From an uncultured Nevskia sp. (GTDB lineage: Bacteria > Pseudomonadota > Gammaproteobacteria > Nevskiales > Nevskiaceae), in contig CAYVKA010000019.1 in assembly GCA_964451925.1 (NCBI GenBank), forward strand, positions 2,136 to 66,135: 64,000 bases of DNA, read 5' to 3'. Shown piece after piece: positions 42,330 through 64,000 of this stretch. A program made the position numbers and the translations under genes. Positions within the stretch are counted from its first letter, which is position 1. Each line of letters opens with the position of its first letter. The notes under the pieces are model-generated. The model saw only the letters and a list, made by a program, of their open reading frames with translations. It made no database searches and was not told the DNA's origin.

Positions 42330-42344
42330 ACCGCAAGACCCAAC

Positions 42345-42373
42345 AAAAAAGGCCGCCACTAGGCGGCCTTTTT
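42345..42373. terminator. Bidirectional intrinsic terminator
   Basis: AAAAAA-GGCCGCC-acta-GGCGGCC-TTTTT. Confidence 0.88.
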
Positions 42374-42433
42374 CGGACTGCTGACCCGTCCTGCCCTGGG
42401 TTGACACCTTTTCCACCGAGAAAAGGCGAGTCA

Positions 42434-43680: not shown

Positions 43681-43715
43681 GTGTCAACCAGGGCTAGGAC
43701 GGGTCACACTCAAAG

Positions 43716-46711: not shown

Positions 46712-46751
46712 GAGTGCGGCAGCCAACGGGGGTGGAAGTAAGCCCCTAAAT

Positions 46752-48653: not shown

Positions 48654-48777
48654 GGCCCTGAAAGGCGTTGATGCGGTTTCGACGCGTCGGACTCCTTCAG
48701 ATCTACGCCAGTACAGCTGGATAGCTTGGCATTGGCTCTTGCTCTGATTTTGAAAGCTTCCTCAAGGTTCACAAAGA

Positions 48778-51036
48778 ATGGCAAATGATTCGGAATCGAT
48801 CGTAAGAAGCGTAGGCGGAATGACGCCCGCCGGCGTCGCCGTGAGCGAGGGTGAGGTCGACCTGCGGCAACTACTGGATCTGTTTAGAGCTGGCCGCTGG
48901 ACAATTGCGATAGTTGTCGCCTTGACAGTTGGTCTGGTTGGCTTGTATTGCGTATGGGTTGCGCCAACCTATCAAGCGGATGGACTTGTTCAAATCGAGC
49001 AGAGCACCGGTAAGGGTGGAGGGGTTCCTCAGCAATTGAGCGAGATTTCTTCCCTTGTACTCGGCTCCTCGGTAGAAACCCAGGCCGAGATACAGGTTCT
49101 GCGCAGCCGGATGGTATTGAGTCAAATTATCGACAAGTTAAATCTTCAAATCTTGGCGCAACCGAAATATCTTCCTTTACTTGGAGCGGCAATCGTTCGG
49201 TCGAGCAAGGAAGCTACTGAGCCGGTTTCAGTGCCAGCTTGGCTGCGCAAATATGCGTGGGGAGGCGAGAGAGTTGCCGTTTCGACTTGGGAAATACCGG
49301 ATGAGTCTTTGAATAAGGCCTTCACCCTTGTCAAAACCGTAACCGGATTTGTAATTAATCGCCCCAATGGGAATAGATTGCTGGAAGGCAGCATCGGTGA
49401 AACTGTTACGACGAATGCCCCAGATGGCACTTTCACTGTTTTTGTGCGCGAACTCGGGGCGGAACCGGGCACGCAATTTAGGCTGATCCGCTATTCCCGT
49501 CAGGACGTCTTGGCTCAGCTGACGAAAAAGCTCCAGATTGCAGAGCAGGGCAAACAATCAGGCGTAATCACCGTCAGTTTTCAAGGCAAATCTCCAGACG
49601 AAGTAACTGACGTTATTAACACATTGGAGGAAGCCTATCTTAGACAGAATGTGGAAAGGCGCTCTGCCAATGCGCAGCAGTCTTTGGAATATCTTCAGAG
49701 GCAGCTTCCGCAACTAAAAGATCAGGTCGATCAGGCGCAGCTAAAGCTCAACTCATATCAGTCCACGCATGGCTCAGTAGATGTTACGCAGGAAACACAA
49801 TTGGTGCTCAAGCAAACTGTCGATCTTGAGTCTCAACGCCTGCAACTGGCACAGCAAAGAGATGAGTTGCTGCAGCGTTTTACCCCACAGCATCCTACAG
49901 TGAAGGCTCTGGACGAGCAGATACAGTCTCTGGATTCCGCCCAGGGAAAGGTCAAGCAACAAGTTGGGAAATTGCCCAACACGCAGCAGGAAATTTTCAG
50001 CCTCCTTCGCGACTTGGACGTCAGCAATGAGCTGTATGCGGAAATGCTGAATTCGATTCAGGAACTGCAGGTCGCTAAGGCTGGAACCGTTGGCAATGTA
50101 CGTATCGTAGACCGGGCTTTAAAGCCGTTTAAACCCATTTCGCCAAGAGTGCCAATGCTGTTGGCGGGTTCAGTCTTCGCTGGTTTGATCATTGGGATGG
50201 CTGTTGTGCTTGTCCAGAGGACCATGCTTCGGGGCGTGGATGATCCAGCTCAAGTGGAGTCTCAGTTGGGACTGGTTACTTATGCCATGGTGCCCTTCTC
50301 CATGCGACAGCGTCAGCTCAACCGAAGCATCGCTAGGAGAGAGCGTGGACAATTCATCCTTGCGGGACTGGACGCTCAGGATATCGCGATCGAATCCCTA
50401 AGAAGCCTACGCACGTCACTGCATTTCGCCATGCTGGAAGCACGCAATAACGTGCTGATGCTTACCGGACCAGCTCCCGAGCTGGGCAAATCCTTCGTCT
50501 CGGTTAACCTTGGGGCGGTGTTGGCGCTTTCTGGAAAGAAGGTCGTGACAGTGGATGCCGACCTTCGTAGAGGGCACTTGCATCTATACGTTGCTGCCTC
50601 AGCAACGCCGGGTATTTCGGAATTCGTGGCTGGTGAAGCTGACTCTAGATCCATCATTCATACTAGCCCGATTCAGGGACTTGATATTGTCTTTCGTGGA
50701 ACAAGCCCGCCAAATCCGTCTGAGTTGTTGCTACATGAGCGATTTGCGGCGCTGATCTCTGAACTTTCGGCTAGGTACGACTACGTGATTATCGATACCC
50801 CTCCAGTTCTAGCAGTGACTGATGCGGCGATTGTAGGCCAGTTGGCGGGCAGCACTCTGCTTGTCCTCAAATCCGCAGAACATTCCATTCGCGAGATTGA
50901 AGAGACCGTCAAACGGCTTTCAACTGCTGGAATCGTTTTGAAGGGCGTCATATTTAATCAAGTTGGCGCACGTGCGGGCAGTTATGGTTACGGGAACTAC
51001 GGATATACAAATTATCGGTATGATTCGACCGGTTAA
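48778..51036 (+). CDS. wzc: Polysaccharide co-polymerase / BY-kinase Wzc
   Basis: Two TM helices, GNVRIVD, ESLRSLRTSL, Walker A GPAPELGKS, DADLRRG, IIDTPPVL, C-terminal Tyr cluster YGYGNYGYTNYRY. Confidence 0.96.
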   Translation: MANDSESIVRSVGGMTPAGVAVSEGEVDLRQLLDLFRAGRWTIAIVVALTVGLVGLYCVWVAPTYQADGLVQIEQSTGKGGGVPQQLSEISSLVLGSSVETQAEIQVLRSRMVLSQIIDKLNLQILAQPKYLPLLGAAIVRSSKEATEPVSVPAWLRKYAWGGERVAVSTWEIPDESLNKAFTLVKTVTGFVINRPNGNRLLEGSIGETVTTNAPDGTFTVFVRELGAEPGTQFRLIRYSRQDVLAQLTKKLQIAEQGKQSGVITVSFQGKSPDEVTDVINTLEEAYLRQNVERRSANAQQSLEYLQRQLPQLKDQVDQAQLKLNSYQSTHGSVDVTQETQLVLKQTVDLESQRLQLAQQRDELLQRFTPQHPTVKALDEQIQSLDSAQGKVKQQVGKLPNTQQEIFSLLRDLDVSNELYAEMLNSIQELQVAKAGTVGNVRIVDRALKPFKPISPRVPMLLAGSVFAGLIIGMAVVLVQRTMLRGVDDPAQVESQLGLVTYAMVPFSMRQRQLNRSIARRERGQFILAGLDAQDIAIESLRSLRTSLHFAMLEARNNVLMLTGPAPELGKSFVSVNLGAVLALSGKKVVTVDADLRRGHLHLYVAASATPGISEFVAGEADSRSIIHTSPIQGLDIVFRGTSPPNPSELLLHERFAALISELSARYDYVIIDTPPVLAVTDAAIVGQLAGSTLLVLKSAEHSIREIEETVKRLSTAGIVLKGVIFNQVGARAGSYGYGNYGYTNYRYDSTG

Positions 51037-51268
51037 TTTTTCATCCTGCCGCTCATATTAGGCAATGACCAAGGCAGGGCTTCTATGAAAGCAGGTTTAA
51101 TCGTGGCTTTCTCAAATATTAGAAACAACTGGCGTACTTCTTGATCTAAAAATGTTGTTTTTAGAAATAAATCAGCAGATTTGGAACGCTGGCGTTCCTC
51201 GGGCCAACCGCTGGAATGAGTTTCGAAAGATTCTGGCCTTAGGCGTTGCCAAATATTATTTGTAAAGA

Positions 51269-52366
51269 TTGGAGATTTTGAGCTTGAAACGTGCACTTAT
51301 CACAGGAATCACCGGACAAGATGGCGCCTATCTTGCAGAATTTCTTTTGGAAAAGGGCTATGAAGTGCACGGCATAAAACGCCGCAGCTCTCTATTTAAT
51401 ACTGATCGAATTGACCACCTATATCATGACCCTCACGTTAAAGGGCGAAATCTAGTCCTTCATTACGGCGATCTTACTGATTCAACTAATCTTATCCGCA
51501 TTGTGCAATTGGTCAAACCGGATGAGATTTATAATCTTGGTGCGCAAAGTCATGTGCATGTCTCATTCGAAAGTCCCGAATATACTGCGAATTCAGATGC
51601 CATAGGCGCGCTGCGAATTCTAGAAGCAATACGAATTCTCGGGATGGAGAAATCGGCGCGCTTCTATCAGGCTTCGACGTCCGAGCTATATGGGTTGGTT
51701 CAAGAAATTCCGCAGAAGGAAACTACACCGTTTTACCCGCGGTCGCCTTATGCGGTAGCGAAACTCTACGCTTATTGGATCACGGTTAACTATCGTGAAG
51801 CTTATGGAATTTACGCTTGCAACGGTATTCTGTTTAACCATGAGTCTCCAATACGTGGAGAGACTTTTGTAACAAGGAAGATTACACGCGCTTTGGCTCG
51901 CATTAAGCTGGGATTACAAGATTGTTTATATCTCGGCAATCTCAATTCACTGCGAGATTGGGGCCACGCACGTGACTATGTGGAAATGCAATGGCTAATG
52001 CTTCAGCAGGAACAGGCCGAAGATTTCGTTATCGCAACCGGTGAGCAACATAGTGTTCGTGAGTTCGTCCAACTCGCAGCGGAAGAACTAGGCATTCAGG
52101 TCAAATGGGAGGGCGAGGGACTTGACTGCAAGGGATTCGATCAGCATGGCAAGTGCATAGTGGCTGTCGATCCGAGATATTTCCGCCCAACAGAAGTTGA
52201 GACTCTGTTGGGCGACGCTGGTAAAGCCAAGCGCAAGCTAGGATGGGTGCCGAAAATCAGTTTCCAACAGTTGGTTCGAGAAATGGCGCTTGAAGATCTA
52301 CGATCAGCTGAACGAGATGATCTGGTAAAAAGCCATGGATACAAAGTAATGGACTACAACGAGTGA
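51269..52366 (+). CDS. gmd: GDP-mannose 4,6-dehydratase
   Basis: [49 protein letters not shown]. The start may be a downstream TTG (51278/51284). Confidence 0.97.
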
Positions 52367-52436
52367 TTCGGTTTCGCACTAGTTAACGTCGCGCCACGAA
52401 GACGGCGCCGAGCGATGCTTTTGTGATGTTCTTTCT

Positions 52437-53831
52437 ATGATTGCGCAAATTTATCGGTCGGTCTCTACAATCCGGCCTTATTTGAGCCTACAGTCGTTCG
52501 ATGTCTCGACAGCTGAGGGACGCTCCCGCGAACGACAGCGGCGAGCCTTTTTGTCAACTATAGTTGCGTTGGTTGCAAAAGTTGTTTCCATAGGTACACA
52601 ACTGATCACTGTACCTGTGACGCTAAGCTATCTAGGAACAGAGAGGTTTGGTCTTTGGATGACCATGTCCTCTGTGATCGCGATGCTTGCCTTTGCCGAT
52701 CTTGGTATTGGCAATGGCCTTCTGAATGCTATAGCAAAGGCTAATGGCGAGGATGACACAGTTGCTATGCGCCGATACATCTCGAGCGCTGTTGTAATTC
52801 TTTGCTTGGTTTCACTAGTCGTACTTGTCACTTTCGAGTTTTCTTATCCTTATATTCCATGGGCTAATTTTTTTAATATTCATAGCTCATTAGCGATCGC
52901 CGAAGCAGGTCCCGCTGTTAAGTTATTTGTGTTTTGTTTCGCGCTCAATATTCCCGCCACAATTGTCCAGAGAGCGCAACTGGGCCTGCAGATGGGATTT
53001 GTAGCGAATCTGTGGCAAGCCCTGGGAAGTGTTTTCGCACTTGTCGCCGTTTTAGTCGCTGTATATATGCGCTGCGGTTTGCAGTGGCTGGTGTTGGCCT
53101 TTGCCGGTGCTCCAGTCATCGCGTCGGCGATGAATGGAATAGTTTTCTTCGGGAAAACGCGCCGGGATCTCAGTCCAAGCCTGTCTTTTGCAACTAGTGA
53201 CAGCGCTTTTAGGATTATCAAACTCGGATTGTTGTTCTTTGTGCTCCAAATCGTCGTGTCAGTGACGTACCTTTCTGACAACATCGTAATAGCTCGCGTG
53301 CTCGGAGCGAGTGTTGTCACGATTTACGCATTGCCGGACAAGATGTTTAGCGTAATACCTATGATCTTGACCATGATGCTGACCCCACTCTGGCCCGCGT
53401 ATGGAGAGGCAATTGCGCGCCGTGATGGAAAATGGGTTGGACGTATCCTAAAGAAGACGCTGCTGATTTCTCTGCTTACGTCGATGGTTTTATCAACAAC
53501 TTTCTTTTGTCTGGGTGACGAGCTTCTATCTCTCTGGGCGGGACACCATATAGCTACGCCGATAGCTCTCCTACTAGGAATGGCACTCTGGAAAATCATA
53601 GAGGCGGTAGGAAATACCGTTGCAGTATATTTGAATGGACATGGGTTAATCCGGGAACAAGTGCTGATGTCGGTGATGACAGGGTTTTCAGCTATTTGCG
53701 GGAAGTTTTATCTAGTTCAAAACTGGGGCGTAGCTGGTGCAATCTGGGCCACGATCATGGCTTATTTGGGGTTCAGCGCTGTTCCGTTGTATTACCTCGT
53801 TAAGAAGACGTTCAGAGTTCAATCAGCATAG
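52437..53831 (+). CDS. wzx: Polysaccharide flippase Wzx
   Basis: Multi-TM MOP-type protein; YLGTERFGLW, DLGIGNGL, LWPAYGEA. Confidence 0.85.
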   Translation: MIAQIYRSVSTIRPYLSLQSFDVSTAEGRSRERQRRAFLSTIVALVAKVVSIGTQLITVPVTLSYLGTERFGLWMTMSSVIAMLAFADLGIGNGLLNAIAKANGEDDTVAMRRYISSAVVILCLVSLVVLVTFEFSYPYIPWANFFNIHSSLAIAEAGPAVKLFVFCFALNIPATIVQRAQLGLQMGFVANLWQALGSVFALVAVLVAVYMRCGLQWLVLAFAGAPVIASAMNGIVFFGKTRRDLSPSLSFATSDSAFRIIKLGLLFFVLQIVVSVTYLSDNIVIARVLGASVVTIYALPDKMFSVIPMILTMMLTPLWPAYGEAIARRDGKWVGRILKKTLLISLLTSMVLSTTFFCLGDELLSLWAGHHIATPIALLLGMALWKIIEAVGNTVAVYLNGHGLIREQVLMSVMTGFSAICGKFYLVQNWGVAGAIWATIMAYLGFSAVPLYYLVKKTFRVQSA

Positions 53832-53836
53832 GGATA

Positions 53837-54415
53837 ATGGCAGTGCGATCGATGCTTCGATGGGCTTTGAACCAACTTGCAAAGCAGAGAATATTGCGTA
53901 TGAACGGGGTCTCAATCTCACCCAAAACAAAGATCAATTACCGGGGCATTGTAGGGAAGACTTTTTCTTCGTTGAAAGTGGAGGAAGGCACTATCATCGA
54001 AGGTAACATTGTGATTGACAAAGAAGGGGCCTCTGTTGCCATCGGCCGCAATAGTTTTATCGGTGCTTCAGATATTGTTTGTGCCGAACGTATCGAGATT
54101 GGGGATGATGTTTTGATTTCCTGGGGCTGTCACATCGTGGATCATAATTCTCATCCAATTTCCTGGAATGAACGACGGGATGATGTCAGGAATTGGTTCG
54201 TTGGAACAAAGGTTTGGGACAAAGTGGTGACAAAAAAAGTGATAATTGGAAGCCGATCTTGGATTGGATTCAATGCAATTATTCTAAAAGGCGTGACCAT
54301 TGGGGAAGGGGCAATTGTTGGCGCTGGAAGCGTTGTGACGAAAGATGTCCCGCCGAACGCAATCGTTGCTGGAAATCCAGCGAGACTAATTCGAGCAGTG
54401 TTAGCTAATGACTAA
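53837..54415 (+). CDS. Left-handed beta-helix (hexapeptide) acyltransferase
   Basis: IGRNSFIG, IGDDVLIS, IVDHNSH, IGSRSWIG..ILKGVTIGEGAIVGAGSVVTKDVP..GNPAR. Confidence 0.92.
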   Translation: MAVRSMLRWALNQLAKQRILRMNGVSISPKTKINYRGIVGKTFSSLKVEEGTIIEGNIVIDKEGASVAIGRNSFIGASDIVCAERIEIGDDVLISWGCHIVDHNSHPISWNERRDDVRNWFVGTKVWDKVVTKKVIIGSRSWIGFNAIILKGVTIGEGAIVGAGSVVTKDVPPNAIVAGNPARLIRAVLAND

Positions 54416-55226
54416 TTCAAGTGTGATGTCCTGGGAAGAGGCTGTTCATTGGCTTAGAAACCAATCCGGGCAAGAAGAGCTGGTGCGCTGTTGCTATTAC
54501 GACGATCCTGTATCTGCGGCGGCAGACAGATTTCAAAAGAGCAAAGAGTGGCAAGCTGTCCGTGAATATATTCCACGACAAGCCGGGACAGCGCTCGATA
54601 TTGGAGCTGGTCGAGGGATTTCATCTTTTGCCTTGGCAAAGGATGGATGGAAAGTAACTGCTCTAGAGCCTGATCCAAGTGACCTGGTTGGTAGCGGAGC
54701 TATTCGCAATCTCGTAAAAGAATCGCATACAGACATCGAAATTGTAAATGAGTGGGGAGAATCTCTTCCCTTTTCCGAGAATAAGTTCGATCTAGTTTAT
54801 TGCCGAGCGGTATTACATCATGCTCGTGAATTGAAAAAGCTCAGCTCAGAAATTGAGCGGGTATTGAAACCAGGAGGTTGCCTAGTAGCAACCCGCGAAC
54901 ACGTGATTTCAAGAAAAAGTGATTTGGCCGCATTCTTTGATAGCCATCCTCTGCACCGCTTGTACGGCGGTGAAAACGCCTATTTGCTATCTGAATATAA
55001 ATCCTCCATCGAAGGTTCTGGGCTTCAGTTAAGCAAAGTCATCGGGCCGTTTGAGAGTGACATTAATCTGTTCCCAGAAACCAAAGACTCTGTAAAGGCA
55101 CAGTTAAGCGCCAAGTTGAAGGTCGTGCCCAAATCCCTGGTATCTGATCTCATGTTGTATCTATATGGTCTGTACAACAAAACCCCAGGACGATTGTATT
55201 CGTTTGTGGCATTTAAGAAATCGTGA
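54408..55226 (+). CDS. Class I SAM-dependent methyltransferase
   Basis: ALDIGAGRG motif I, ESLPF..FDLVY, VLHH, RVLKPGG. Confidence 0.88.
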   Translation: MTNSSVMSWEEAVHWLRNQSGQEELVRCCYYDDPVSAAADRFQKSKEWQAVREYIPRQAGTALDIGAGRGISSFALAKDGWKVTALEPDPSDLVGSGAIRNLVKESHTDIEIVNEWGESLPFSENKFDLVYCRAVLHHARELKKLSSEIERVLKPGGCLVATREHVISRKSDLAAFFDSHPLHRLYGGENAYLLSEYKSSIEGSGLQLSKVIGPFESDINLFPETKDSVKAQLSAKLKVVPKSLVSDLMLYLYGLYNKTPGRLYSFVAFKKS

Positions 55227-56134
55227 AGGCTCTAGTCACAGGGGCCCATGGATTTCTTGGGCGCTATGTTGCTCACCGTTTGCACGAATGCGGGTATTCA
55301 GTTGTGGGCATAGGGCATGGTGTCTGGACTCATGATGAGCAACTGCAATACGGCGTAACGGAATGGCATTCTGTGGATATCACGATGGATGCACTCGTGA
55401 AGTTCGCTGAAAGGCCCGACATGGTTGTCCACTGCGCTGGGAGTGGTTCCGTCGCGTTTTCGATGTCTGAGCCCTATCAGGATTTTGAGCGGACAGTGGG
55501 CAATACCGCCATTATTCTTGAATACATCAGATTGCACTCCCCTCGGTCAGTGCTTATCTATCCTTCCAGTGCGGCCGTGTACGGTCTGGCAGATTGCCTG
55601 CCCATTAAAGAGTCACACCAATCCAATCCGGTCTCCCAGTACGGCCTGCACAAACTTATGGCCGAGCAAATGTGTCGCTCGTATTCGATGCATTTCGGCG
55701 TAGCCGCTGCAATAGTCCGTTTCTTTTCCATTTACGGAGAGGGTCTAAGAAAGCAGCTTCTTTGGGACACCTGTACAAAAATCACGCAAGGTCAAGGCAA
55801 TTTCTTTGGTACAGGTAATGAGATACGAGACTGGATTCATGTAGAAGACGCTGCGGCCTTAGTGGAAATCGCCGGGCAGCACGCTTCTCCTCAATGTCCT
55901 GTCGTGAACGGCGGGAGTGGTGATGGAGTATCTGTAAGTGAAATAGTATTCGAACTATTTCGCTTATTTAATGTGCAACAAATTCCAAAGTTTAGTGGTC
56001 AATCCCGACTTGGAGATCCGCCAGGGTATCAAGCCGAGATTTCATCGGCCCGTGCATTGGGGTGGCGGCCAAAGATTCGTTGGCAAGATGGAATGCACCG
56101 ATATGCACGTTGGTTCAAGGAGCAGAAACAGTGA
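55223..56134 (+). CDS. NAD-dependent epimerase/dehydratase/reductase (extended SDR)
   Basis: VTGAHGFLG, SSAAVYG, YGLHK (YxxxK), RFFSIYG, RDWIHV. Confidence 0.9.
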   Translation: MKALVTGAHGFLGRYVAHRLHECGYSVVGIGHGVWTHDEQLQYGVTEWHSVDITMDALVKFAERPDMVVHCAGSGSVAFSMSEPYQDFERTVGNTAIILEYIRLHSPRSVLIYPSSAAVYGLADCLPIKESHQSNPVSQYGLHKLMAEQMCRSYSMHFGVAAAIVRFFSIYGEGLRKQLLWDTCTKITQGQGNFFGTGNEIRDWIHVEDAAALVEIAGQHASPQCPVVNGGSGDGVSVSEIVFELFRLFNVQQIPKFSGQSRLGDPPGYQAEISSARALGWRPKIRWQDGMHRYARWFKEQKQ

Positions 56135-57312
56135 TTCGGGTGGCGTTTGTTCTTAACGATATCGGCGATCGCTGGTTAGGCGGGGTTAATTACTATAGAA
56201 ATCTCTTTTCGGCATTGGAGTTGATTGAAAATCGAAAGATAGCGCCTGTGGTATTTTTGGGGGCACAGGCATCCGATAGTTTTGCGCGTAATTTCAAATC
56301 CGCAGAAATCGTACGAAGCACGATTCTTGATCGCAAAACGCCAGGATGGATTGTACGCAAAGTCGCGTCCAGATTCATGCCAGAGAGGCGTGACCCCCTT
56401 TTGTACGCACTGTTGAGGCAATACAAAATCGATGTAGTGTCACACTATCACTATGGATCAGTTTGGTGGGGGAAGAAAATCAAAATGATTGGCTGGATTC
56501 CCGACTTCCAGCACCTTTACTATCCTAATTTCTTTTTGCCCAGCGAAAGCAGTACGCGAGACGTGCAATACGAGCGGGTATGCCGCCTTTGTGACAGGGT
56601 GATTTTGAGTAGCAATGCGGTGCGTGACGATTTGAAGGTTTTTGCACCCGGTGCACTTCCCAAATCGCGGGTGCTTAGATTTGTACCGGATGTAAGCTTT
56701 GCGTCGCCTATCGTTAGCCTGGAAGACCTAAAAAGAAAATATGGCTTCAAGGCTCCATTTTTCTTTCTACCCAATCAATTTCACATTCATAAAAATCACC
56801 GCGTCGTAGTTGAAGCGTTAGCCGAATTAAAGAAAAAAGGGGCTGCAGCCACCGTGGTGGCTACCGGTAACACCGCCGATTATCGGAGGCCAGACTATTT
56901 CCCGGCTCTACTTGATCAGGTGACATCTCTCGATGTAAAGAATTTTTTTAAAATTATCGGCATGGTGCCGTATGAGGACTTGGTGTCTTTGATGTGCCAC
57001 TCCATTGCCGTTATCAATCCGTCACTGTTTGAGGGATGGAGCACAACGGTTGAAGAGGCAAAGGCTCTCAACAAGGTTACGCTGTTATCAGATATTGCGG
57101 TGCATCGTGAGCAGAATCCAAATGGTAGCTTCTTTTTTAATCCAAATGATTGCTCTGATCTAGCTGAGAAAATGTTCGCTGTGTTGAATAGTTCCACAGA
57201 TTTAACTTCGGCATATGCTGTTCCAGATGAAGGTTATCAGGCGCGTCGAGCCAATTTCGCATGCGAATATCAAAAAGTCGTTATCGAAACTGTAGCGCAG
57301 GAAAATCCTTAG
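56131..57312 (+). CDS. Glycosyltransferase family 4 (GT-B)
   Basis: WIPDFQH, PNQFHIHKNH, PSLFEGWSTTVEEAKA, SDIAVHREQ; GTG start overlaps the upstream stop. Confidence 0.9.
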   Translation: MIRVAFVLNDIGDRWLGGVNYYRNLFSALELIENRKIAPVVFLGAQASDSFARNFKSAEIVRSTILDRKTPGWIVRKVASRFMPERRDPLLYALLRQYKIDVVSHYHYGSVWWGKKIKMIGWIPDFQHLYYPNFFLPSESSTRDVQYERVCRLCDRVILSSNAVRDDLKVFAPGALPKSRVLRFVPDVSFASPIVSLEDLKRKYGFKAPFFFLPNQFHIHKNHRVVVEALAELKKKGAAATVVATGNTADYRRPDYFPALLDQVTSLDVKNFFKIIGMVPYEDLVSLMCHSIAVINPSLFEGWSTTVEEAKALNKVTLLSDIAVHREQNPNGSFFFNPNDCSDLAEKMFAVLNSSTDLTSAYAVPDEGYQARRANFACEYQKVVIETVAQENP

Positions 57313-57433
57313 CAAAGTATGTATCCCAATCAGCCAATCGGGACGTTACGAATCTCGACACTGAATTTAGGCGATTTGACGTCTAGTCGTATTGCAGTCG
57401 AGCTGATTGGGGATTTTTTCCAAGGCGCCGAAG

Positions 57434-58624
57434 ATGATTGATGATCTAATTGTCAGTCCTCAGTACTGGGCAGTGTTCGCTGTTGCAATGGCGGCCTTCT
57501 TTTGGGGCTTGCGATATACGCTGCTGGATTTCAAGTTTTTCATTGCCCTCTTTATTTCGCAGTATATTGCTCATCTATATGTTCTGATCGATCAATATTC
57601 CTCATTATTTTTATTTGCCTTGTTGAGTGGGTTAATGATTATTTTGGGGAGGTCGACCGTACCAAAAATATTGCGTACCCAAACCAAGCAACTGACGTTT
57701 ATTGATTACGAAGCCCGGAATTACCTTGTCCTTTGCAAGTTGTTTATTGTCACGTACTTCCTACTTCGCTTTGCACTGTACCCCCAGTTTTTTTCCGAGT
57801 TCGATATTTCCGCACGACTGGAGGCTCAGTATGACAACCGCGTGATCTATATTTTTTCACTTGTGATCGGCGTTCCAGTGGCCGCCGTACTTTGTGATTG
57901 GATTGATCGTCGCGAATTAGGGCGTTTCGATAAATTCTTGGCGGTCCTTATATTCCTCGGATATCTACAATCTGGATCTAAGGGGACTGTAATCTTTCTG
58001 GCTTTGGCGTTCATAGGCCTGACTTCATATATGCAGCGGCGAGTTAGTCCGGTCTATGTTGCGGGAGGGTTACTCTCAGTTTTTGCCATTGCATGGACTG
58101 CACTAAAGATTTTTTTTCCGCAATTGAACTCTCAGGAAATCGGCCAATTAATTTTGCACCGTATCGTCAGTAATACGGACAACATTGAGTTTCTTTATGT
58201 ATTGGGGGCCCAACCAGGCGATTATCCGTATGCCGGAATCGGTGAGTTATTTGCACCAATAGCCAAGCGGTTCGGGGAACAAATCGACTATCCCATAGGG
58301 GTATGGCTGTTTGGTTCGCGCTTCGGTGACTGGAGTGGTTTTGGTCCAAACTCGGGATTCATAATCGAATTTTTTGGAAGTTTGGGGTATGGCGGACTGT
58401 TGGTGGCGTTTTTCGTGGGTGTAGCCATAGGCTACTGCGAACAGCGAAGAACCCTATATCGAGCAGTGCTTCTTTCAATGCTCCATTTAATTTTGATAGA
58501 AAATCAGATTTTCACGACTTCTCTACTTGCTCATTCATTTTTCATTTTATTAGCTAGAGCTGCGTCATTTCTGCCAAAAAGGCCAAAATCAAACAATACT
58601 CGAAAAATACTTGTTTGGAGGTGA
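57434..58624 (+). CDS. Putative polysaccharide polymerase Wzy
   Basis: About 10 hydrophobic segments, low GC, SGSKG and RIVS loop motifs; sits within a wzx/wza/wzc locus with no other wzy candidate. Confidence 0.7.
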   Translation: MIDDLIVSPQYWAVFAVAMAAFFWGLRYTLLDFKFFIALFISQYIAHLYVLIDQYSSLFLFALLSGLMIILGRSTVPKILRTQTKQLTFIDYEARNYLVLCKLFIVTYFLLRFALYPQFFSEFDISARLEAQYDNRVIYIFSLVIGVPVAAVLCDWIDRRELGRFDKFLAVLIFLGYLQSGSKGTVIFLALAFIGLTSYMQRRVSPVYVAGGLLSVFAIAWTALKIFFPQLNSQEIGQLILHRIVSNTDNIEFLYVLGAQPGDYPYAGIGELFAPIAKRFGEQIDYPIGVWLFGSRFGDWSGFGPNSGFIIEFFGSLGYGGLLVAFFVGVAIGYCEQRRTLYRAVLLSMLHLILIENQIFTTSLLAHSFFILLARAASFLPKRPKSNNTRKILVWR

Positions 58625-58797
58625 GCTTTTTTTTTTGACAAGAGTCTGGCTAGATATATGGGAGACCGGCAGGCCAACCCGAAATTGAAATCTACTCAGC
58701 ATCACGCAAACTAGAGCAATCATCCGCTGATGAATTGCAATAAAGCTAGATTGCATCAATAAGACTGCTGTAAGCCGTGGTATTGAGGTTTTTGAAT

Positions 58798-59763
58798 ATG
58801 AATGTCGCGATTATTGGTTGTGGTGCTGTATTTGAAGTATTTTATATGGAAGCACTGAGTCGTATGCATCGCGCTGGCGTCATTAAGGTCATGGTGCTTG
58901 TTGATAGCATCCAACAAAATGTGGAGCGCGCCGCAAGTCGCTTTGCTAATGCCAGGCTTGCTTCCGATTTGAGTCAAGCGGATCTGGATGGAATTGATCG
59001 CGCACTGGTTCTCACCCCTCCGGCCAGTCACTTTGGAATCTGCATGCTCCTGGCCAAAGCCGGTGTTCATGTTTATTGCGAGAAGCCTCTAACTACCTCG
59101 CCTCAAGAAGCCAGAGATATTGCTGCTGCGTTCATGGATAAGAACTTGATCTGCAAGGTCGGTTATGTCCGCCGCTTATTCCCGAATGTTCGCGCCGTGC
59201 GTTCTCTCTATGGACGCATTGCAGGAGGTAGGCATATTGCAGTTTCAGACGGGGAAGTATTCCGCTGGCCGATCAAGACCGCATCAGTATTTTCCCCTGG
59301 CGATTCCGGCGCAGGGGTTGTTTGGGACAAGCTCAGTCATAATCTGGATATGGTGCAGTGGGTGGCTGGACTCCGAGAAATTACTTCGGTTCAATCAAGC
59401 TGCAAATCGGGAATGGTCCCGTCTGACGTTCTTGTAGAAGGTAGTACTGGCGAAGGAACCTTCAAGTTAGCTGTCTCTTGGACTGCGGCTTTCGCAAATG
59501 TAATTTCGATTGAAGGTGCGAACACCACGATTCGCACAAAGAATGGCCTTGGTTGGCAATTGAATGTGTCTGAACCTGTGGCACTTCCTCACGATGTCGG
59601 CAGTGTGTCGTCGTACGGCGAGGCGGTGGAGTCGGCGCTTGGAGAGTTCTTTCGCCTGCGAGACCGAGAAGAAAATTCCATACTTGCAACCTCGGAGGAA
59701 AGTGTCCTCCTCACCGAACTTTTGTCAAAAATCAATATTCTTGCAAAAAAGAGTTTAGTATGA
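58798..59763 (+). CDS. Gfo/Idh/MocA-family oxidoreductase
   Basis: VAIIGCG Rossmann start, TPPASH, HVYCEKP, GYVRR, DKLSHNLD. Confidence 0.88.
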   Translation: MNVAIIGCGAVFEVFYMEALSRMHRAGVIKVMVLVDSIQQNVERAASRFANARLASDLSQADLDGIDRALVLTPPASHFGICMLLAKAGVHVYCEKPLTTSPQEARDIAAAFMDKNLICKVGYVRRLFPNVRAVRSLYGRIAGGRHIAVSDGEVFRWPIKTASVFSPGDSGAGVVWDKLSHNLDMVQWVAGLREITSVQSSCKSGMVPSDVLVEGSTGEGTFKLAVSWTAAFANVISIEGANTTIRTKNGLGWQLNVSEPVALPHDVGSVSSYGEAVESALGEFFRLRDREENSILATSEESVLLTELLSKINILAKKSLV

Positions 59764-60821
59764 AAGTCGCGCTGATTGGTGCGGGATCGTCGGTCGGAAG
59801 ACATCTGCTACTTCGTAACGACCCAAGGTTTATCGGGATTTATCGGAGCGCCAAAGCCCTGTCGCAATTGTGCGATTTGGATTTGGGTGATCGCTTGATT
59901 AGGGCATCCAATCCCGCCGCCTTGTCAGCGGCCATCAAAGGCTGCGATACGGTAGTCACGCTGATCAATGATGAGAACCCAAGATCAGCCCTGCTAAGCT
60001 TGCGTCAAACGATGGATGCATGTGTGGCGGCTGGAGTAAGGCAACTGATCCACATCAGTTCGGCGGCCATTTACGGGCGTAATGCGCATCAGGTGAGGAG
60101 TGTCGACGCAGCCGGGCCCTCGCTGACGTGGAGTTCCTATGCTGCGGGCAAGCAATGGCAAGAGAATTTCCTTAAGCAGAGCGCTGCCCGTTTACACTCG
60201 GTTGTTGTGCTTAGACCTGGATTGATCTGGGGGCCAGGTATGGCTTGGCTACATGTTCCCGCTGGGGACGTACTACGCGGTGAAGCTTGGATCGCGGAGG
60301 GGGATGCGCCATGCAATCTTGTGCACATTGATTTGTTAACGCATGCAATCGTCAGCTATGCCGAATCGTGTCCGTCGGGGCTATCGTTCTGCAATCTATT
60401 CGACCGTAAGCGAATGACCTGGAGCGAATATTACAGGCGTATTGCTCAGAGTCTCAAAGTTGAACATCTTGATATTCATGTGATTCCACGTAAAGCGTCA
60501 CCACCCTGGCTACGTAACGCTAATGCCCCGAGATTTATGTTTCCGCTAGGATTGGGTTGGAGCGTATCGCCAAGGCCGCTCAAGGATTTTGTGAAGACTT
60601 TGGTACGGAGCATTCCGAAAAAAAAACGGCCGAACGGCGTGCAAATTTGCGGTATGGGTACACAACATCTGTCAATCAATCGCGAAATGTGGGAGTTGAA
60701 GACCGTGCAGGGATTGCCGCCACACAACCAGGCACTCGAGCAGTTACACGATAGTTTGCCTCGTAGCGAATCTGAGCAGTGGGCTGAAATCGGCAAATTG
60801 GACCGATGGCTGTGGATTTGA
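59760..60821 (+). CDS. NAD-dependent epimerase/dehydratase-like protein (atypical SDR)
   Basis: ALIGAGSSVG (degenerate glycine motif), HISSAAIYG, YAAGK, LRPGLIWGPG. Confidence 0.8.
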   Translation: MKVALIGAGSSVGRHLLLRNDPRFIGIYRSAKALSQLCDLDLGDRLIRASNPAALSAAIKGCDTVVTLINDENPRSALLSLRQTMDACVAAGVRQLIHISSAAIYGRNAHQVRSVDAAGPSLTWSSYAAGKQWQENFLKQSAARLHSVVVLRPGLIWGPGMAWLHVPAGDVLRGEAWIAEGDAPCNLVHIDLLTHAIVSYAESCPSGLSFCNLFDRKRMTWSEYYRRIAQSLKVEHLDIHVIPRKASPPWLRNANAPRFMFPLGLGWSVSPRPLKDFVKTLVRSIPKKKRPNGVQICGMGTQHLSINREMWELKTVQGLPPHNQALEQLHDSLPRSESEQWAEIGKLDRWLWI

Positions 60822-62071
60822 ATGCAGGTATGAGAGTCCTTTACCTGAGTCCTCTTGTACCGGCCATCTCTGGTAGTGGAGGCAAGAGAGCCGTTTATAA
60901 CCACCTCAACGCGCTTAGCAATAACTCTGCACTAGATGTGGATGTGGTGGCAATTGATGAGGAAGCCAAAGGAGAGCGGTGGCCGGTCGAGCTTGTTTTG
61001 TTTTCTGCGCGAGTCTTTCCTCGGGGGCTTCCGCGGGTTGGGACAGGTGTGGTCGGTGTTGCTGGCGCGCTGCGACAAATATTATTGGATCCCGCTCCGC
61101 GTGCTGCTGCTGTACTCAAGTCGCAGCCTGCAATCGAGTGCATCAAAGAAATGCTCGGTAGAGTAGCCTACGATCTTGTGATTGTTGACTTACTCAAGGC
61201 CTATGCCTTGATCGACAAACTGCAAATTAATGCACCGATCGTCTATCTCGCTCACAACGTTGAGGCGGAAATTTACCGCGATCGGTGGCGCCATACTCCA
61301 TTGCTGTCGCTTGGAAAATGGTTCTCTGGTCTGGAGTATTTCAAGACTCTGCGTTATGAGCGACGGCTTTTAAACAGAGCTGTAAGCGTCATCGCTATCT
61401 CCTCCGGTGATATAGGAGTGGGTTCATTCAAAGAGATTGTTAAAAAGCTTAGCTGCTGGCCCGAGTTGCCGACCCCTCAGTTACGACAGTGGTCCCTTCC
61501 TGCAAGGAAAACACTATTATTCGTCGGATCGGCTCAATACTTCCCCAATCGCGACGCCATCGAATGGCTTGCGAATGAATTGATGCCGCGTATAGCCGAG
61601 ATTGACTCTGAAATCCGCCTTAAGGTCGTGGGTACTCGTAAAGACGAGGTGGCATTGGCGGTCGGTGGCAGCAATGTAGAGTTTCTAGGCTTTGTTTCCC
61701 ATGAAGAGTTGGTATCACTGCACTACGATGCTGATTTGTTCATTAGCCCGGTAGTGTTGGGTAGCGGGATCAAAATCAAAGTGCTGGAAGCGTCGGCATT
61801 TGGTATGCCCATCGCTGCAACAATCGAATCATTGCGTGGTGTCGACTATCTCGATGGCGCAGCCCATGTGATTGACCGTCAGGCGGCGGATGGGACGGCC
61901 ACATCTATAGTTAATCTTGTCAACGCGCAACAGTCCCTGAACGATATGCATCATGCGACAGTTGAAGGTCTAAAGCGGGCGATTGAGAGGCGTGACAGCC
62001 TTGCGAGTTTGCTGTTGAAGGCAATTCCGGCGACTTCTACTCATAAAATCAAACTCGCCGTAGATAGATGA
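60806..62071 (+). CDS. Glycosyltransferase family 4
   Basis: SGGKRAVYN, AHNVE, FVGSAQYFPNRDAIEW, GSGIKIKVLEA..G.P. The start may be ATG 60830. Confidence 0.88.
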   Translation: MAVDLNAGMRVLYLSPLVPAISGSGGKRAVYNHLNALSNNSALDVDVVAIDEEAKGERWPVELVLFSARVFPRGLPRVGTGVVGVAGALRQILLDPAPRAAAVLKSQPAIECIKEMLGRVAYDLVIVDLLKAYALIDKLQINAPIVYLAHNVEAEIYRDRWRHTPLLSLGKWFSGLEYFKTLRYERRLLNRAVSVIAISSGDIGVGSFKEIVKKLSCWPELPTPQLRQWSLPARKTLLFVGSAQYFPNRDAIEWLANELMPRIAEIDSEIRLKVVGTRKDEVALAVGGSNVEFLGFVSHEELVSLHYDADLFISPVVLGSGIKIKVLEASAFGMPIAATIESLRGVDYLDGAAHVIDRQAADGTATSIVNLVNAQQSLNDMHHATVEGLKRAIERRDSLASLLLKAIPATSTHKIKLAVDR

Positions 62072-62078
62072 GACGCGA

Positions 62079-62819
62079 ATGATCTCAGTATGCATGGCAG
62101 TCTTCAATGGTGAGCACTATCTTGAGGAGCAGCTCCACTCGATTCTTTCGCAGCTATCTGCCGACGATGAAATTATCATAGTTAATGATTGCTCTCAGGA
62201 TGGCTCGACAGCGCTAGTTCGAGCCATTGCGGATCCACGGATTCTGTTACTTGAAAACTCTAAAAATTGCGGCCCTGTAGCTTCTTTCGAGCGCGCTATA
62301 TCTGCTGCTACTGGACAGTATATTTTTTTGTCGGACCAAGATGACATTTGGATGCCTGGTAAGGTGGAATTGGTTTGTCGCAATTTAGCTCGCGAAGGTG
62401 TTTTGGTCGTAGTTTCGGACGCCCGTGTCATCAATGACGAAAAAAGGATTTTGCTTGACTCCTTTTTTCAGTTGCGCAATAGCGGCCCAGGGTTCTGGAA
62501 AAATCTGTTTAAGAACGGATTTATAGGATGTTGTATGGCATTCCGTTCGGAGGCCAAGACATTCATATTGCCGTTCCCGGCTAGGATCGCTATGCACGAT
62601 CAATGGGTTGGACTCTGCTGCTGTGTTGCCGGTACTTCCAGTTTCATCGGCGAAAAGTTGATCGATTACCGCAGGCATGAGAGGACGGTCACCCAACTTA
62701 AGCGCGGTTCGTTTCTTTCTGCCGCCGGAAAGCGTGTGCGCTTCGTGTTTTCGATATGTGTCCGTCTCCCGCGCATTTGGTATTGGCGTTTGCATCAAGG
62801 AGTCAACACTGCAAGGTAG
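62079..62819 (+). CDS. Glycosyltransferase family 2 (GT-A)
   Basis: ISVCMAVFNGEHYL, NDCSQD, FLSDQDDIW, GCCMAF, MHDQW, YRRH. Confidence 0.93.
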   Translation: MISVCMAVFNGEHYLEEQLHSILSQLSADDEIIIVNDCSQDGSTALVRAIADPRILLLENSKNCGPVASFERAISAATGQYIFLSDQDDIWMPGKVELVCRNLAREGVLVVVSDARVINDEKRILLDSFFQLRNSGPGFWKNLFKNGFIGCCMAFRSEAKTFILPFPARIAMHDQWVGLCCCVAGTSSFIGEKLIDYRRHERTVTQLKRGSFLSAAGKRVRFVFSICVRLPRIWYWRLHQGVNTAR

Positions 62820-62872
62820 TCAGTAGTGGAATAGGCAGGCACAGCTCGTAGTGTGGTTTGAGTACTGACATC

Positions 62873-64000
62873 ATGACTTCACGGCGCGACTTTTTCTCTC
62901 GTTTTTGCCGGACTGCTAGTGCTGGCGTGGGCGGCGCTTGGCTAGGTTTAAGTCGCCCCGCGTTTAGCGTATCCAATCAGCGTCCAACTCATATCGATGC
63001 CAATCCGACGATTGATTCTCAAAGGTTGGCTGGTGTGGAGGAGCTTAGGGGGCTGGGCACCGCCACTAGAACTGGAAGTGTTTGGCTGGAGTACTACACC
63101 GCCCCAGGAGATGGCGGTGGCGGGTTGTTACTCCTGGATGCGAATGATACTACTTCGATTGACAATCACGGTACGATTTTCCGCTCCAAAGCTGGAGATG
63201 CTTGGAAACGTCCTAACCAATTGGACGTAACTGTTGCTCAGTTCGGTGCGCAGGGGCTGATGACATCTAATGACGCAATAGCTATACAGCGCGCTTGTGA
63301 TGCTGTTTGCCCGGTCGTTGGTGTGGATGAATTTCCTGCCGGCCGCGTTTGGTTGGACGTTCCTCGTCGTGGCTATCTTCTAAATTCGACGTTGAATCTA
63401 ACCAATACTAGGGCTTTAGGCTCCAGACAACGAGATGGATTAACCCTTGAGGGGCCTGGGCATTTCTCTGCGCGGCTAATTGGTGCTGCAGGGGAGGGAC
63501 GGGCCGTAATCGAGACGACGGGCTCGCAATGGCTCACATTGCGAAATCTGCGCATCGAGGCTCATGAGCACAACGGTTCCACTATCGGTATTTATCAAGG
63601 TATCGGACAAGTACTTCCCGAGACCCAAAATCAGAAATTTGAGCGGATATACATCGATCTGCCGGACAATGCAGCCGCCAACAACGGTATTGGTTCTATT
63701 GGAATTCTAAATTTTGGTGCCGAGGAAAACACCTATGAATGCTGTTACGTAACCGCAAACGCGCCAGCAATCTTCACCGCCGAAGATTTTGGTTATAAAC
63801 ATAGCTACGTGTCACAGTTGAGCGCTCATTCGCTCGGCATGACAACTTTTATCGGTGAAAATTTTCTCGTCTCTAAGAATGCACGTTCGCCATCGCTCGC
63901 TACCCAAGATGTTGATACCTTTTATGCACCTTCGCTGTTTCTCGCCAACATTGGCGCTGGTGGCGACAATCGGCATGCTTGGCAGATACGTGGCGGATTT
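62873..64000 (+). CDS. Tat-signal, tailspike-like / pectate-lyase-like beta-helix protein (3' truncated; absent from the ORF track)
   Basis: Hand translation gives 376 codons with no stop: MTSRRDFF Tat motif, YYTAPGDGGGG..D..D.TS.DN.GTI..W.R segment, VTVAQFGAQG..NDAIAIQRA, then Asn/Gly/Ile-rich strand-like sequence. Confidence 0.8.
   Translation, partial: MTSRRDFFSRFCRTASAGVGGAWLGLSRPAFSVSNQRPTHIDANPTIDSQRLAGVEELRGLGTATRTGSVWLEYYTAPGDGGGGLLLLDANDTTSIDNHGTIFRSKAGDAWKRPNQLDVTVAQFGAQGLMTSNDAIAIQRACDAVCPVVGVDEFPAGRVWLDVPRRGYLLNSTLNLTNTRALGSRQRDGLTLEGPGHFSARLIGAAGEGRAVIETTGSQWLTLRNLRIEAHEHNGSTIGIYQGIGQVLPETQNQKFERIYIDLPDNAAANNGIGSIGILNFGAEENTYECCYVTANAPAIFTAEDFGYKHSYVSQLSAHSLGMTTFIGENFLVSKNARSPSLATQDVDTFYAPSLFLANIGAGGDNRHAWQIRGGF

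Follow-up and report, generated by a model that had tools for sequence, protein, structure and literature searches.

A predicted Tat-signal, tailspike-fold protein encoded within a Wzx/Wzy-type polysaccharide gene cluster

Results

An open reading frame lies among glycosyltransferase genes

The window that we analyzed is a stretch of DNA of 64,000 nucleotides, toward the end of which group-4-capsule-like accessory genes are followed by a long run of co-directional polysaccharide genes (Table 1). Within a high-GC host backbone, the cluster forms a low-GC island of the variable, serotype-like type, and its sugar genes (Gmd, ManC/ManB and reductases) suggest 6-deoxyhexose/mannose chemistry rather than uronic acids. 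IS elements were observed within and close to the cluster. In a plasmid collection, the best DNA match was at 80% to a helicase gene of Xanthomonas sacchari, too weak to assign the DNA to a host. An earlier note on this DNA had pointed to an open reading frame (ORF) missed at the window edge, and translation confirmed that this ORF is stop-free across 376 codons and contains every peptide quoted from it, i.e., MTSRRDFFSRFCRTASAGVGGAWLGLSRPAFS, WLEYYTAPGDGGGGLLLLDANDTTSIDNHGTIFRSKAGDAWKR and VTVAQFGAQG...NDAIAIQRACDA. Its start is the ATG at 62873, which is the first start codon past an in-frame stop 8 codons upstream and lies 53 nt beyond the stop of the preceding GT2 gene. No promoter-like site was found in the 53-nt gap, and the end of the GT2 gene contains one terminator-like hairpin, of a kind no commoner here than in shuffled sequence.

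Extending the window, as had been proposed, yielded a complete ORF. The remainder was taken from L001:10001-11965, which is the same as the window over 62873-64000, and the full-length product, P0001, comprises 654 aa, occurs on 21 contigs and is 100% identical across the part within the window. Because these identical public contigs carry the ORF on to 654 aa, there is no stop or frameshift just past the window. Downstream, on the opposite strand, are genes for a GT2, two Bac_transf initiating transferases, two epimerases, manC and manB. The proposed host setting is borne out, with the ORF inside a Wza/Wzc/Wzx polysaccharide cluster, but the ORF is not at the cluster end or after the last glycosyltransferase, as had been stated; glycosyltransferase genes lie on both sides of it, and no phage genes adjoin it. 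One contig of the metatranscriptome run X28 covers 62077-63000, which spans the GT2 gene, the gap and the start of the ORF, although the RNA evidence for the ORF consists of assembled contigs, for which DNA carry-over is possible. Contigs of the runs labeled 'RNA?' (X17 and X20) were flat and genome-like and thus uninformative on expression.

Table 1. Features of the polysaccharide cluster and of the window part of the ORF
Feature	Position	Strand	Basis
Group-4-capsule-like accessory genes, opening of the low-GC island	41583..47183		
YjbF/GfcB	41583-42329	+	
IS3-type element	42401-43680	+	
YjbH/GfcD	44378-46711	+	
Wzb phosphatase	46752-47183	-	
Co-directional polysaccharide genes upstream of the ORF	47478..62819	+	
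Wza	47478-48653	+	
Wzc	48778-51036	+	
Gmd	51269-52366	+	
Wzx-like	52437-53831	+	
Hexapeptide acyltransferase, methyltransferase, epimerase/reductase, GT4	after Wzx-like	+	
Wzy-like membrane protein, at least 8 TM segments	57407-58624	+	
GFO oxidoreductase, epimerase, GT4, GT2	after Wzy-like (GT2: 62079-62819)	+	
Gap between GT2 gene and ORF, 53 nt	62820..62872	+	
N-terminal part of ORF, 376 codons of 654-aa P0001	62873..64000	+	translation, identical contig
Predicted Tat signal peptide, residues 1-32	62873..62968	+	rule-based scan
Low-complexity linker, residues 33-50	62969..63022	+	alignment, AF2 model
Neck domain, residues ~51-118, YYxPGDGGGG...DTTSxDNxGT...WKR	63023..63226	+	phmmer, PHROGs, profile A2, PF27114
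Beta-helix N-terminal cap, residues 119-150, VTVAQFGAQG..NDAIAIQRACDAV, PF12708-type motif	63227..63322	+	profile A1, AF2
Right-handed beta-helix rungs, residues 151-376 inside the window	63323..64000	+	AF2, fold matches

P0001 begins with a predicted Tat signal and a tailspike neck domain

P0001 has no at-threshold match in the Pfam, NCBIfam or PADLOC libraries, and it matched nothing in Pfam-A even at E<=1 and no family among the PADLOC anti-phage defence models at E<=0.1. A rule-based scan divides the putative signal peptide into an n-region (MTSRRDFFSR), a weakly hydrophobic h-region (TASAGVGGAWLGL) and a c-region (SRPAFS) with one basic residue and small residues at -3/-1. The SRRDFF motif and the uncharged 14-residue h-region satisfy the Tat rules of the scan, although R10 and R13, two additional arginines located after the RR motif and before the h-region, count against the assignment. 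The Tat signals of Escherichia coli CueO and WcaM (listed in PMC7549933) resemble that of P0001. No tat genes lie in the window. In P0165, an ortholog with 59% identity, the SRRDFFSR core is unchanged while other signal residues and the linker have diverged, which upholds the Tat-type signal originally proposed. However, the explanation offered for it, that a trimer folding in the cytoplasm calls for Tat, is weakened, since relatives carry Sec signals and a tailspike-like fold thus does not require Tat. The linker shows 17% identity to the ortholog and low confidence in the AF2 model.

The block given in the earlier note as YY.PGDGGGG..DNGGT..WKR proved to be real tailspike homology. Residues 55-144 match the tailspikes 5w5p (1e-5), 5w6p and 6w4q in phmmer searches of the PDB, as well as PHROG tail-fiber/EPS-depolymerase families. 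The neck profile A2 matches 5w5p (5e-17), 5w6p/6w4q (~1e-10) and K2 TSPs in the PDB, and also residues 171-263 of 6tgf_F (E=0.0027), which is the structure of Pantoea WceF. Judged from these matches, the neck domain is common to phage tailspikes (AM24, CBA120 TSP2, K2-2) and to WceF, and it probably corresponds to the PF27114 Phage_tail_beta region, which is precomputed for P0001, P0165 and P0173, the last of which has only the neck region in common. Between P0001 and its ortholog, dN/dS is ~0.11 for the neck; across the whole gene, dS is saturated. A tblastn search of GenBank phages returned nothing beyond weak neck or cap matches, and a homologous-protein search with the N-terminal 150 residues of P0001 gave no match.

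The body of P0001 is modeled as a tailspike-like beta-helix

Profile A1 matches GH55 glucanases, AlgE epimerases and the Sf6 tailspike solely across the cap motif, within which the AF2 model places a helix at residues 135-144. P0001 scores below the Pfam threshold for PF12708 (Pect-lyase_RHGA_epim / pectate_lyase_3), whereas its homologs P0002, P0005, P0011 and P0012 score above it, which makes P0001 a divergent relative. In the AF2 monomer model (pLDDT 82.5, pTM 0.80, with helix rungs mostly >90), the helix continues to approximately residue 485 and is followed past the window by a C-terminal beta domain (residues 486-654). The best 34 fold matches in the PDB are all phage tailspikes or capsule depolymerases, which agrees with the tailspike-like fold that had been predicted. 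These 34 include AM24, CBA120 TSP2/4, K2-2, APK09, Fri1 and Depo32, and the matches in BFVD are phage pectate-lyase-like tail proteins. Family-conserved candidates for catalytic residues are D188, E284, E285 and E329, which lie within the window, and E386, which lies outside it. Conservation of E284, E285, E386, D188 and H319 is at least 90% among phage and cellular family members, and the helix is the best-conserved part between orthologs (75%), which fits with a maintained active site.

Relatives occur in phage tail modules and in polysaccharide clusters

The ortholog P0165 is intact and syntenic on L018, where the order GT4-GT2-X-<GT2-<Bac_transf-<epimerases is identical. Identity is 59% for the gene itself (X) and 57-58% for adjacent glycosyltransferases, so the gene has diverged from its ortholog to the same degree as the flanking serotype-specific glycosyltransferase genes. 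The closest sequence relatives lie in phage tail modules, and relatives at 39-52% identity occur on phage contigs. P0006, P0011, P0018 and P0020 are in phage contexts, and hallmarks near relatives comprise P22-type portal and coat, holin and endolysin/GH108, SU10 adaptor, and phage lysozyme genes, which bears out the kinship with phages that had been suspected. The contigs of P0008 and P0030 are phage-like in gene layout alone and contain no hallmark gene. Alignments of P0020 and P0030, two phage relatives from metagenomes, cover residues ~40-653 of P0001. More distant relatives (P0017, P0162, P0171, L015), most with Sec signals, are found in polysaccharide clusters of other lineages, and phage and cluster members are interleaved in a rough NJ tree. 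Scanning genome contigs with P0001 revealed no relative, and scanning them with alignment A1 revealed only seven MAG loci, so the gene is missing from the species-representative genomes. When metagenomes were searched with P0071, a Tat-like relative, only neck-domain fragments without genomic context were recovered.

Discussion

P0001 as a putative depolymerase of its own cluster's polymer

Based on its fold, kinship and genomic setting, we propose that P0001 is probably a host-encoded, tailspike-fold polysaccharide depolymerase that acts on the polymer of its own cluster and is a functional analogue of WceF. P0001 would be made alongside the biosynthetic enzymes of the cluster and would fold in the cytoplasm, probably as a trimer held by neck, beta-helix and C-terminal domain, a compartment that would contain only single lipid-linked repeat units. 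The Tat translocase would then recognize SRRDFF and export the protein, with the signal cleaved near residue 32. The helix groove would bind polymer in the periplasm, or once the protein has been released further, and conserved carboxylates (candidates E284/E285, E329, E386 and D188) would cleave it, as hydrolase or lyase. Such cleavage would result in chain-length trimming, polymer clearance or release, and matrix remodeling; both the activity and the physiological role are what we infer.

WceF of Pantoea stewartii (PDB 6TGF) is a Tat-signal, tailspike-fold hydrolase encoded in an EPS cluster (PMC7949094), which means that the novelty claimed for the present gene was overstated: P0001 is a new example of the WceF-type principle, not a new principle. 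WceF hydrolyses stewartan, and wceF knockouts form longer chains; the enzyme also shows auto-agglutination with stewartan, and its cleavage of this polymer is much slower than that by a phage enzyme (PMC7949094). By analogy with this slow, lectin-like behavior, the role of P0001 may not be purely degradative. AmsF is the Erwinia homolog of WceF, and the two, like P0001, have phage tailspike and EPS-depolymerase relatives (PMC7949094; PMC10194208). Like WceF, P0001 is a product of an EPS cluster of the wza-wzc, Wzx/Wzy type (Wza, Wzc, Wzb, Wzx-like, Wzy-like, glycosyltransferases, Bac_transf, ManC/ManB), has a predicted N-terminal Tat signal, and presents a CBA120-type neck, as matched by profile A2, ahead of a right-handed beta-helix. 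However, P0001 lacks the P22-tailspike-like head domain of WceF (residues 34-146), with just the 18-residue linker after the signal, and is 654 aa long compared with 736 aa for WceF. PF09008 had no match on P0001; the relative P0010 has it. Furthermore, the helix body of P0001 has no detectable sequence similarity to WceF: 6tgf is absent from the A1 profile matches in the PDB at E<=10, and it is likewise absent among the best 50 fold matches listed for P0001. The host of P0001, with its high-GC backbone, also differs from the hosts of WceF and AmsF in not belonging to the Erwiniaceae.

Phage tailspikes such as AM24 (5W5P, Acinetobacter phage), CBA120 TSP2 (5W6P/6W4Q) and the Klebsiella K2-2 TSP (8IQ5) rank highest among the fold matches of P0001 (E 1e-17 to 1e-11) and among its neck-profile matches, and they have the same order of neck, cap, beta-helix and C-terminal beta domain. 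In contrast to these proteins, P0001 carries a Tat signal in place of the N-terminal virion-anchoring domain, and its gene lies between glycosyltransferase genes and not in a tail module. WcaM, a beta-helix protein of unknown role from the colanic acid cluster of E. coli, likewise has a Tat signal, and its gene stands last in a wza-wzc EPS operon. Homology between WcaM and P0001 was rejected, as hhalign of A1 gave a probability of 0.25 and there was no NCBIfam match; at 464 aa and without a neck domain, WcaM is at most an analogue of P0001. For AlgL, PslG, BcsZ, PelA and Vibrio cholerae RbmB, the enzyme is encoded in a biosynthetic locus and cleaves what that locus makes, the same logic as we propose for P0001. 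The folds of these enzymes are unrelated to that of P0001, with the exception of RbmB, a beta-helix lyase that is among the P0001 fold matches (9OZL). Export in this group is mostly by Sec, the pathways are synthase-dependent or of other types, and there is no kinship with phage tailspikes.

Alternative functions

A beta-helix protein exported from a polysaccharide locus could instead modify its polymer, as AlgG does, which is a periplasmic beta-helix protein from a polysaccharide operon. P0001 would then be an AlgG/AlgE-type C5-epimerase, or an epimerase/lyase, that alters sugar configuration in the nascent polymer. The N-cap motif does match the mannuronan C5-epimerases 2pyg, 5lw3 and 8ja4 in profile searches, and the alginate epimerase/lyase 8jaz appears among the fold matches (E ~2e-5). 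However, the epimerase matches are confined to the generic cap motif, the best whole-protein fold matches are all depolymerizing tailspikes, and the nearest homologs are proteins of phage tails, which serve to cleave. The sugar genes of the cluster also speak against uronic acid substrates, although a GFO-type oxidoreductase is present, and we regard modification in place of cleavage as unlikely.

Tailspike helices are high-affinity glycan binders, and it is similarly improbable, though conceivable, that P0001 has little or no catalytic activity and serves mainly in the matrix, where it would bind and cross-link exported polysaccharide in the manner of a lectin. The agglutination and slow cleavage observed for WceF (PMC7949094) favor this role. 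Conservation across both phage and cellular members of the acidic residues and H319 named above, and of the helix above all other regions between orthologs, fits instead with a maintained active site.

We give somewhat less credence to a function in phage defence or competition, in which capsule would be shed or thinned, decoy polymer released, or the capsules of competitors attacked. Consistent with such a function, the family is held in common with phage receptor-binding proteins, and phage pressure is expected on a low-GC, variable, serotype-like island. Yet P0001 had no PADLOC match and no adjacent defence genes, and a Tat signal alone would deliver the protein no further than the periplasm. 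In addition, the location of the gene among biosynthetic glycosyltransferase genes, together with a divergence equal to theirs, favors a biosynthetic or processing role. Finally, that the gene is a stranded prophage remnant without current function is very improbable, and we reject it: its nearest relatives are phage genes and IS elements lie in and near the cluster, but the ORF is intact at 654 aa with no flanking phage genes, the conserved Tat motif stands in place of a phage anchor domain, the syntenic ortholog is intact at 59% identity with a conserved helix, and the gene is present in a metatranscriptome contig.

Implications for Wzx/Wzy clusters

As a likely depolymerase of its own cluster's polymer, P0001 extends the WceF principle, in which a tailspike-fold enzyme is kept in the cluster that builds its target polymer, to a second sequence family, with a helix body unrelated to that of WceF and hosts outside the Erwiniaceae. 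Since relatives occur in the polysaccharide clusters of several lineages, enzymes of this kind may commonly control chain length or remodel the matrix in Wzx/Wzy systems. The pairing of gene and cluster provides a built-in match of enzyme and substrate, which would help in studying how specific depolymerases are and in obtaining polymer-specific glycanases. That phage and cellular members are interleaved is relevant to gene exchange between phage receptor-binding modules and host polysaccharide loci. We tentatively suggest, as a possibility that we hold to be less likely than its opposite, that there is repeated traffic of this beta-helix family between phage tail modules and Wzx/Wzy clusters across distant lineages, with the N-terminus swapped each time among virion anchor, Sec signal and Tat signal. 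If so, cluster-encoded self-depolymerases would be a general, under-recognized module of Wzx/Wzy clusters, these enzymes would constitute a lasting store of polymer-specific cleavage domains that phages share, and transfer might proceed in both directions, host cluster to phage and phage to host.

A complete gene in a low-GC polysaccharide cluster

Translation of the window showed that the reading frame at its 3' edge runs for 376 codons without a stop and contains all the peptides quoted in the earlier note. Its ATG is the first start codon past an in-frame stop located 8 codons upstream, and 53 nt separate it from the stop of a GT2 gene. A homology search yielded the full-length product, P0001, of 654 aa, which shows 100% identity across the portion inside the window and is encoded on 21 public contigs. 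Contig L001, which matches the window at every base of the ORF, continues the reading frame, which indicates that the gene is complete, with neither frameshift nor stop past the window edge. The extending contigs also carry, immediately downstream, a convergent GT2 gene, two Bac_transf initiating transferases, two epimerases, manC and manB. The gene thus sits mid-cluster, with glycosyltransferase genes on either side, and not at the end of the operon, the one detail in which the earlier observation was not confirmed.

In X28, a declared metatranscriptome run, a 924-nt contig over 62077-63000 takes in the entire GT2 gene and the gap and reaches 128 nt into the P0001 ORF, and the gap holds no promoter-like site, which suggests that the two genes are co-transcribed, although these are assembled contigs in which DNA carry-over is possible. 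One more X28 contig falls within the ORF, and depth across the cluster is very uneven.

The polysaccharide cluster (window about 42000-64000) is compositionally foreign to its own genome, with GC of 63-73% in the backbone up to ~42 kb and 46-52% over the polysaccharide genes. Among its products is a membrane protein that we infer to be the Wzy polymerase. A search of the species-representative genome collection with P0001 found no copy of the gene.

Features of the cluster, of related loci and of P0001 (window positions unless a contig or residues are named)
Feature	Position	Strand	Remarks
YjbF/GfcB	41583-42329	+	start of low-GC island
IS3-type element	42401-43680	+	orfA-like 42401-42832; orfB with rve integrase core 42829-43680
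Small Ser/Thr/Gly-rich secreted ORF	43716-43958	-	
YjbH/GfcD	44378-46711	+	
Wzb-type low-molecular-weight phosphotyrosine phosphatase	46752-47183	-	
Wza, Wzc, Gmd, Wzx-like flippase	within low-GC island		
Acyltransferase, methyltransferase, epimerases/reductases, two GT4s, one GT2	within low-GC island		
Membrane protein	within low-GC island		405 aa; at least eight TM-like segments
Epimerase	55223-56134		303 aa
GT2 upstream of P0001	62079-62819		
P0001 ORF	62873-64000	+	portion inside the window
Bac_transf genes	L001:13157-14401; L001:16400-17239	-; -	414 aa; 279 aa
DDE transposase (DDE_Tnp_1)	L001:17570-18643; L004:7685-8758		
P0162	L020:9776-11824		
P0171 tandem pair	L021:10001-13668		555 and 662 aa
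P0001 Tat-type signal (predicted)	residues 1-32		rule-based check
P0001 linker	residues 33-50		poorly conserved
P0001 neck domain	residues about 51-118		
P0001 beta-helix cap	residues 119-150		
P0001 right-handed beta-helix	residues about 151-485		
P0001 C-terminal beta domain	residues 486-654		

Several features of the surrounding sequence were also observed. The IS3-type element occupies the slot between yjbF and yjbH expected for yjbG/gfcC, and the small secreted ORF has a YjbE-like look in reversed orientation; the accessory operon for a group-4 capsule is possibly interrupted or rearranged. The Wzb-type phosphatase gene lies on the strand opposite wza and wzc, which is unusual relative to the E. 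coli wza-wzb-wzc order. The DDE transposase, located between the second Bac_transf gene and manC, is present in L001 and L004 and not in L002, and the L001 counterpart of the tabulated epimerase gene is called at 249 aa; both are strain-level variation in the cluster. With its two Bac_transf-type initiating phosphoglycosyl transferase genes, the cluster might serve two polymers or be a hybrid that uses manC/manB in common. Within the 0.63-0.73 GC backbone, GC dips to 0.56 at window 32001-34000. A survey of sequencing runs recovered the identical sequence of window 60000-64000 (99-100% of sampled words) from runs labelled as at least 6 different organisms, and also from metagenomes of soil, groundwater, seawater and plankton. 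Either the source strain is very widespread, or it often contaminates laboratories or reagents.

Tailspike-type architecture and phage kinship

P0001 begins with a predicted Tat signal, in which an S-R-R-D-F-F motif is followed by an uncharged, weakly hydrophobic stretch (TASAGVGGAWLGLS). The c-region of the signal, SRPAFS, includes one basic residue and is small at -3/-1; no lipobox was found. Agreement with h-region and c-region rules and retention of the SRRDFFSR core in the ortholog P0165 support the Tat motif proposed earlier, and the predicted signal is similar to those of E. coli CueO and WcaM (table in PMC7549933). The tailspike kinship read from the YYxPGDGGGG block also holds, in that the neck domain by itself matches tailspikes 5W5P, 5W6P and 6W4Q as well as PHROG tail-fiber/EPS-depolymerase families. 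A 30-sequence neck profile (A2) matched 5W5P (5e-17), CBA120 TSP2 (~1e-10), Klebsiella K2 tailspikes and, at residues 171-263 (E=0.0027), the structure 6TGF of WceF, a Tat-signal tailspike-fold EPS hydrolase of Pantoea stewartii. The precomputed Pfam label of P0001, PF27114 (Phage_tail_beta), probably marks this domain, because the relative P0173 bears the same label and has only the neck region in common with P0001. The cap carries the FGAxG...D..AIQ.A motif, and profile matches to GH55 glucanases, AlgE epimerases and the Sf6 tailspike are restricted to it.

A second AlphaFold model, based on a 30-sequence alignment, had a mean pLDDT of 82.5 and a pTM of 0.80, with pLDDT mostly >90 in the helix and moderate (52-76) in the neck. 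A fold search of the PDB placed only phage tailspikes and capsule depolymerases at ranks 1-34, among them AM24, CBA120 TSP2 and TSP4, K2-2, APK09, Fri1, P1, Depo32 and Kp7, and a viral library returned phage pectate-lyase-like tail proteins; the monomer model thus argues for the beta-helix/tailspike fold that the earlier note had predicted.

Relatives numbered 1396 at E<=1e-3 and 39 at E<=1e-30 in an exhaustive HMMER search. Consistent with kinship to phage proteins, several lie in phage gene contexts: P0006 adjoins a holin and a GH108 endolysin, P0011 is flanked by P22-type portal and coat, P0018 adjoins SU10 adaptor proteins, and the P0020 contig carries a phage lysozyme. A P22 head-binding domain is present in P0010 and P0170. 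P0020 and P0030 are alignable across P0001 residues about 40-653, which indicates that they have the neck, helix and C-terminal domain in common with P0001, and both have some 80-115 residues of N-terminal anchor. The P0030 contig is phage-like in layout only, because it holds nothing but small ORFs and DUFs.

A probably long-resident gene

P0165, which starts with MASRRDFFSR, is 59% identical to P0001 over its full length, and its gene has the same place in the gene order (GT4-GT2-X-<GT2-<Bac_transf-<epimerases). The adjacent glycosyltransferases are 57% and 58% identical between the two loci, which matches the value for P0001/P0165, and the genes downstream are 70-92% identical. Identity is 75% in the helix, 66% in the neck, 66% in the cap, 35% in the C-terminal domain, 17% in the linker and 47% in the signal, within which the SRRDFFSR core is the same. 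Synonymous sites are saturated, and the neck, the sole region giving an estimate, has a dN/dS of ~0.11. This divergence fits a long-resident, selected gene; a recent insertion does not fit the pattern of divergence and synteny.

Comparison with WceF and proposed function

The Tat signal of WceF is 28 residues long, and the protein has a CBA120-like neck and a trimeric tailspike-like beta-helix; its gene lies inside the stewartan wza-wzc cluster, and it hydrolyses stewartan, chains of which are longer in knockouts (PMC7949094). P0001 is like WceF in its predicted Tat signal, cluster context and neck domain, and unlike it in having no P22-like head domain. Neither a profile search of the PDB nor the fold ranking detected similarity between the helix body and 6TGF. 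P0001 would resemble WceF in how it works, yet it is not a demonstrable member of the WceF family. WcaM of E. coli, whose gene closes the colanic acid operon, also has a Tat signal, but it is unrelated to P0001 by sequence (hhalign probability 0.25). The earlier suggestion that folding as a cytoplasmic trimer explains Tat export is plausible and shared by the WceF authors (PMC7949094), and is weakened by the many relatives with Sec signals.

With a complete gene, a tailspike-type fold, phage kin, a conserved Tat motif and residency in the cluster established, the earlier interpretation is supported as far as sequence, fold and context reach, and by analogy with WceF we consider it fairly probable that P0001 is an exported depolymerase that cleaves the polymer of its own cluster. 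P0001 would be produced alongside the biosynthetic enzymes and would fold, and probably trimerise, in the cytoplasm, a compartment in which lipid-linked repeat units occur only singly. After export via the Tat pathway and removal of the signal, it would bind polymer along the helix and cleave it with conserved carboxylates, which could result in chain-length trimming, polymer clearance or release, or matrix remodelling. The candidates for catalysis are E284 and E386 (the same in all of 39 diverse family members), E285, D188 and H319 (at least 90% conserved in the same sequences) and E329 (invariant in the 16 closest members). It is unlikely that P0001 is instead an epimerase or other modifying enzyme, and equally so that it is a lectin-like cross-linker; a role in phage defence or competition is very unlikely. 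An inert prophage remnant is barely credible, as the P0001/P0165 divergence does not fit one.

Recurrence of the family in polysaccharide clusters

Distant relatives also occur in other polysaccharide clusters. P0017, with a Sec signal, neighbours Wzx, glycosyltransferases and Bac_transf, and a copy in a deltaproteobacterial MAG has a Sec signal with ManB, Bac_transf, Gmd and GT2 genes alongside. P0162, inside a cluster of Wzz, GT2s, Wzx and a sulfotransferase, keeps a phage-tail-fiber-like N-terminus and has no recognisable signal peptide. P0171 is one of two tandem beta-helix paralogs on a 694-kb metagenomic contig (40% GC, Bacteroidota-like), in a cluster with Wzi, Bac_transf, several GT2s and Wzx, and the pair adjoins a protein with a weak Por_Secre_tail match. 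Tat-like signals are found in a few other relatives (P0071, P0074 and P0146). P0001 and P0165, both with predicted Tat signals, pair up in a rough neighbour-joining tree, in which phage and cluster members are interleaved; exchange between phages and clusters has thus happened more than once.

The relatedness of AmsF/WceF to phage EPS depolymerases is already in the literature (PMC10194208). Because WceF and AmsF established the principle, P0001 is a further case of it, and what is new here is the different beta-helix family and the different, high-GC host. Most worth following up is that members of the P0001 family, whose N-termini are interchangeable, recur inside polysaccharide clusters in several lineages.
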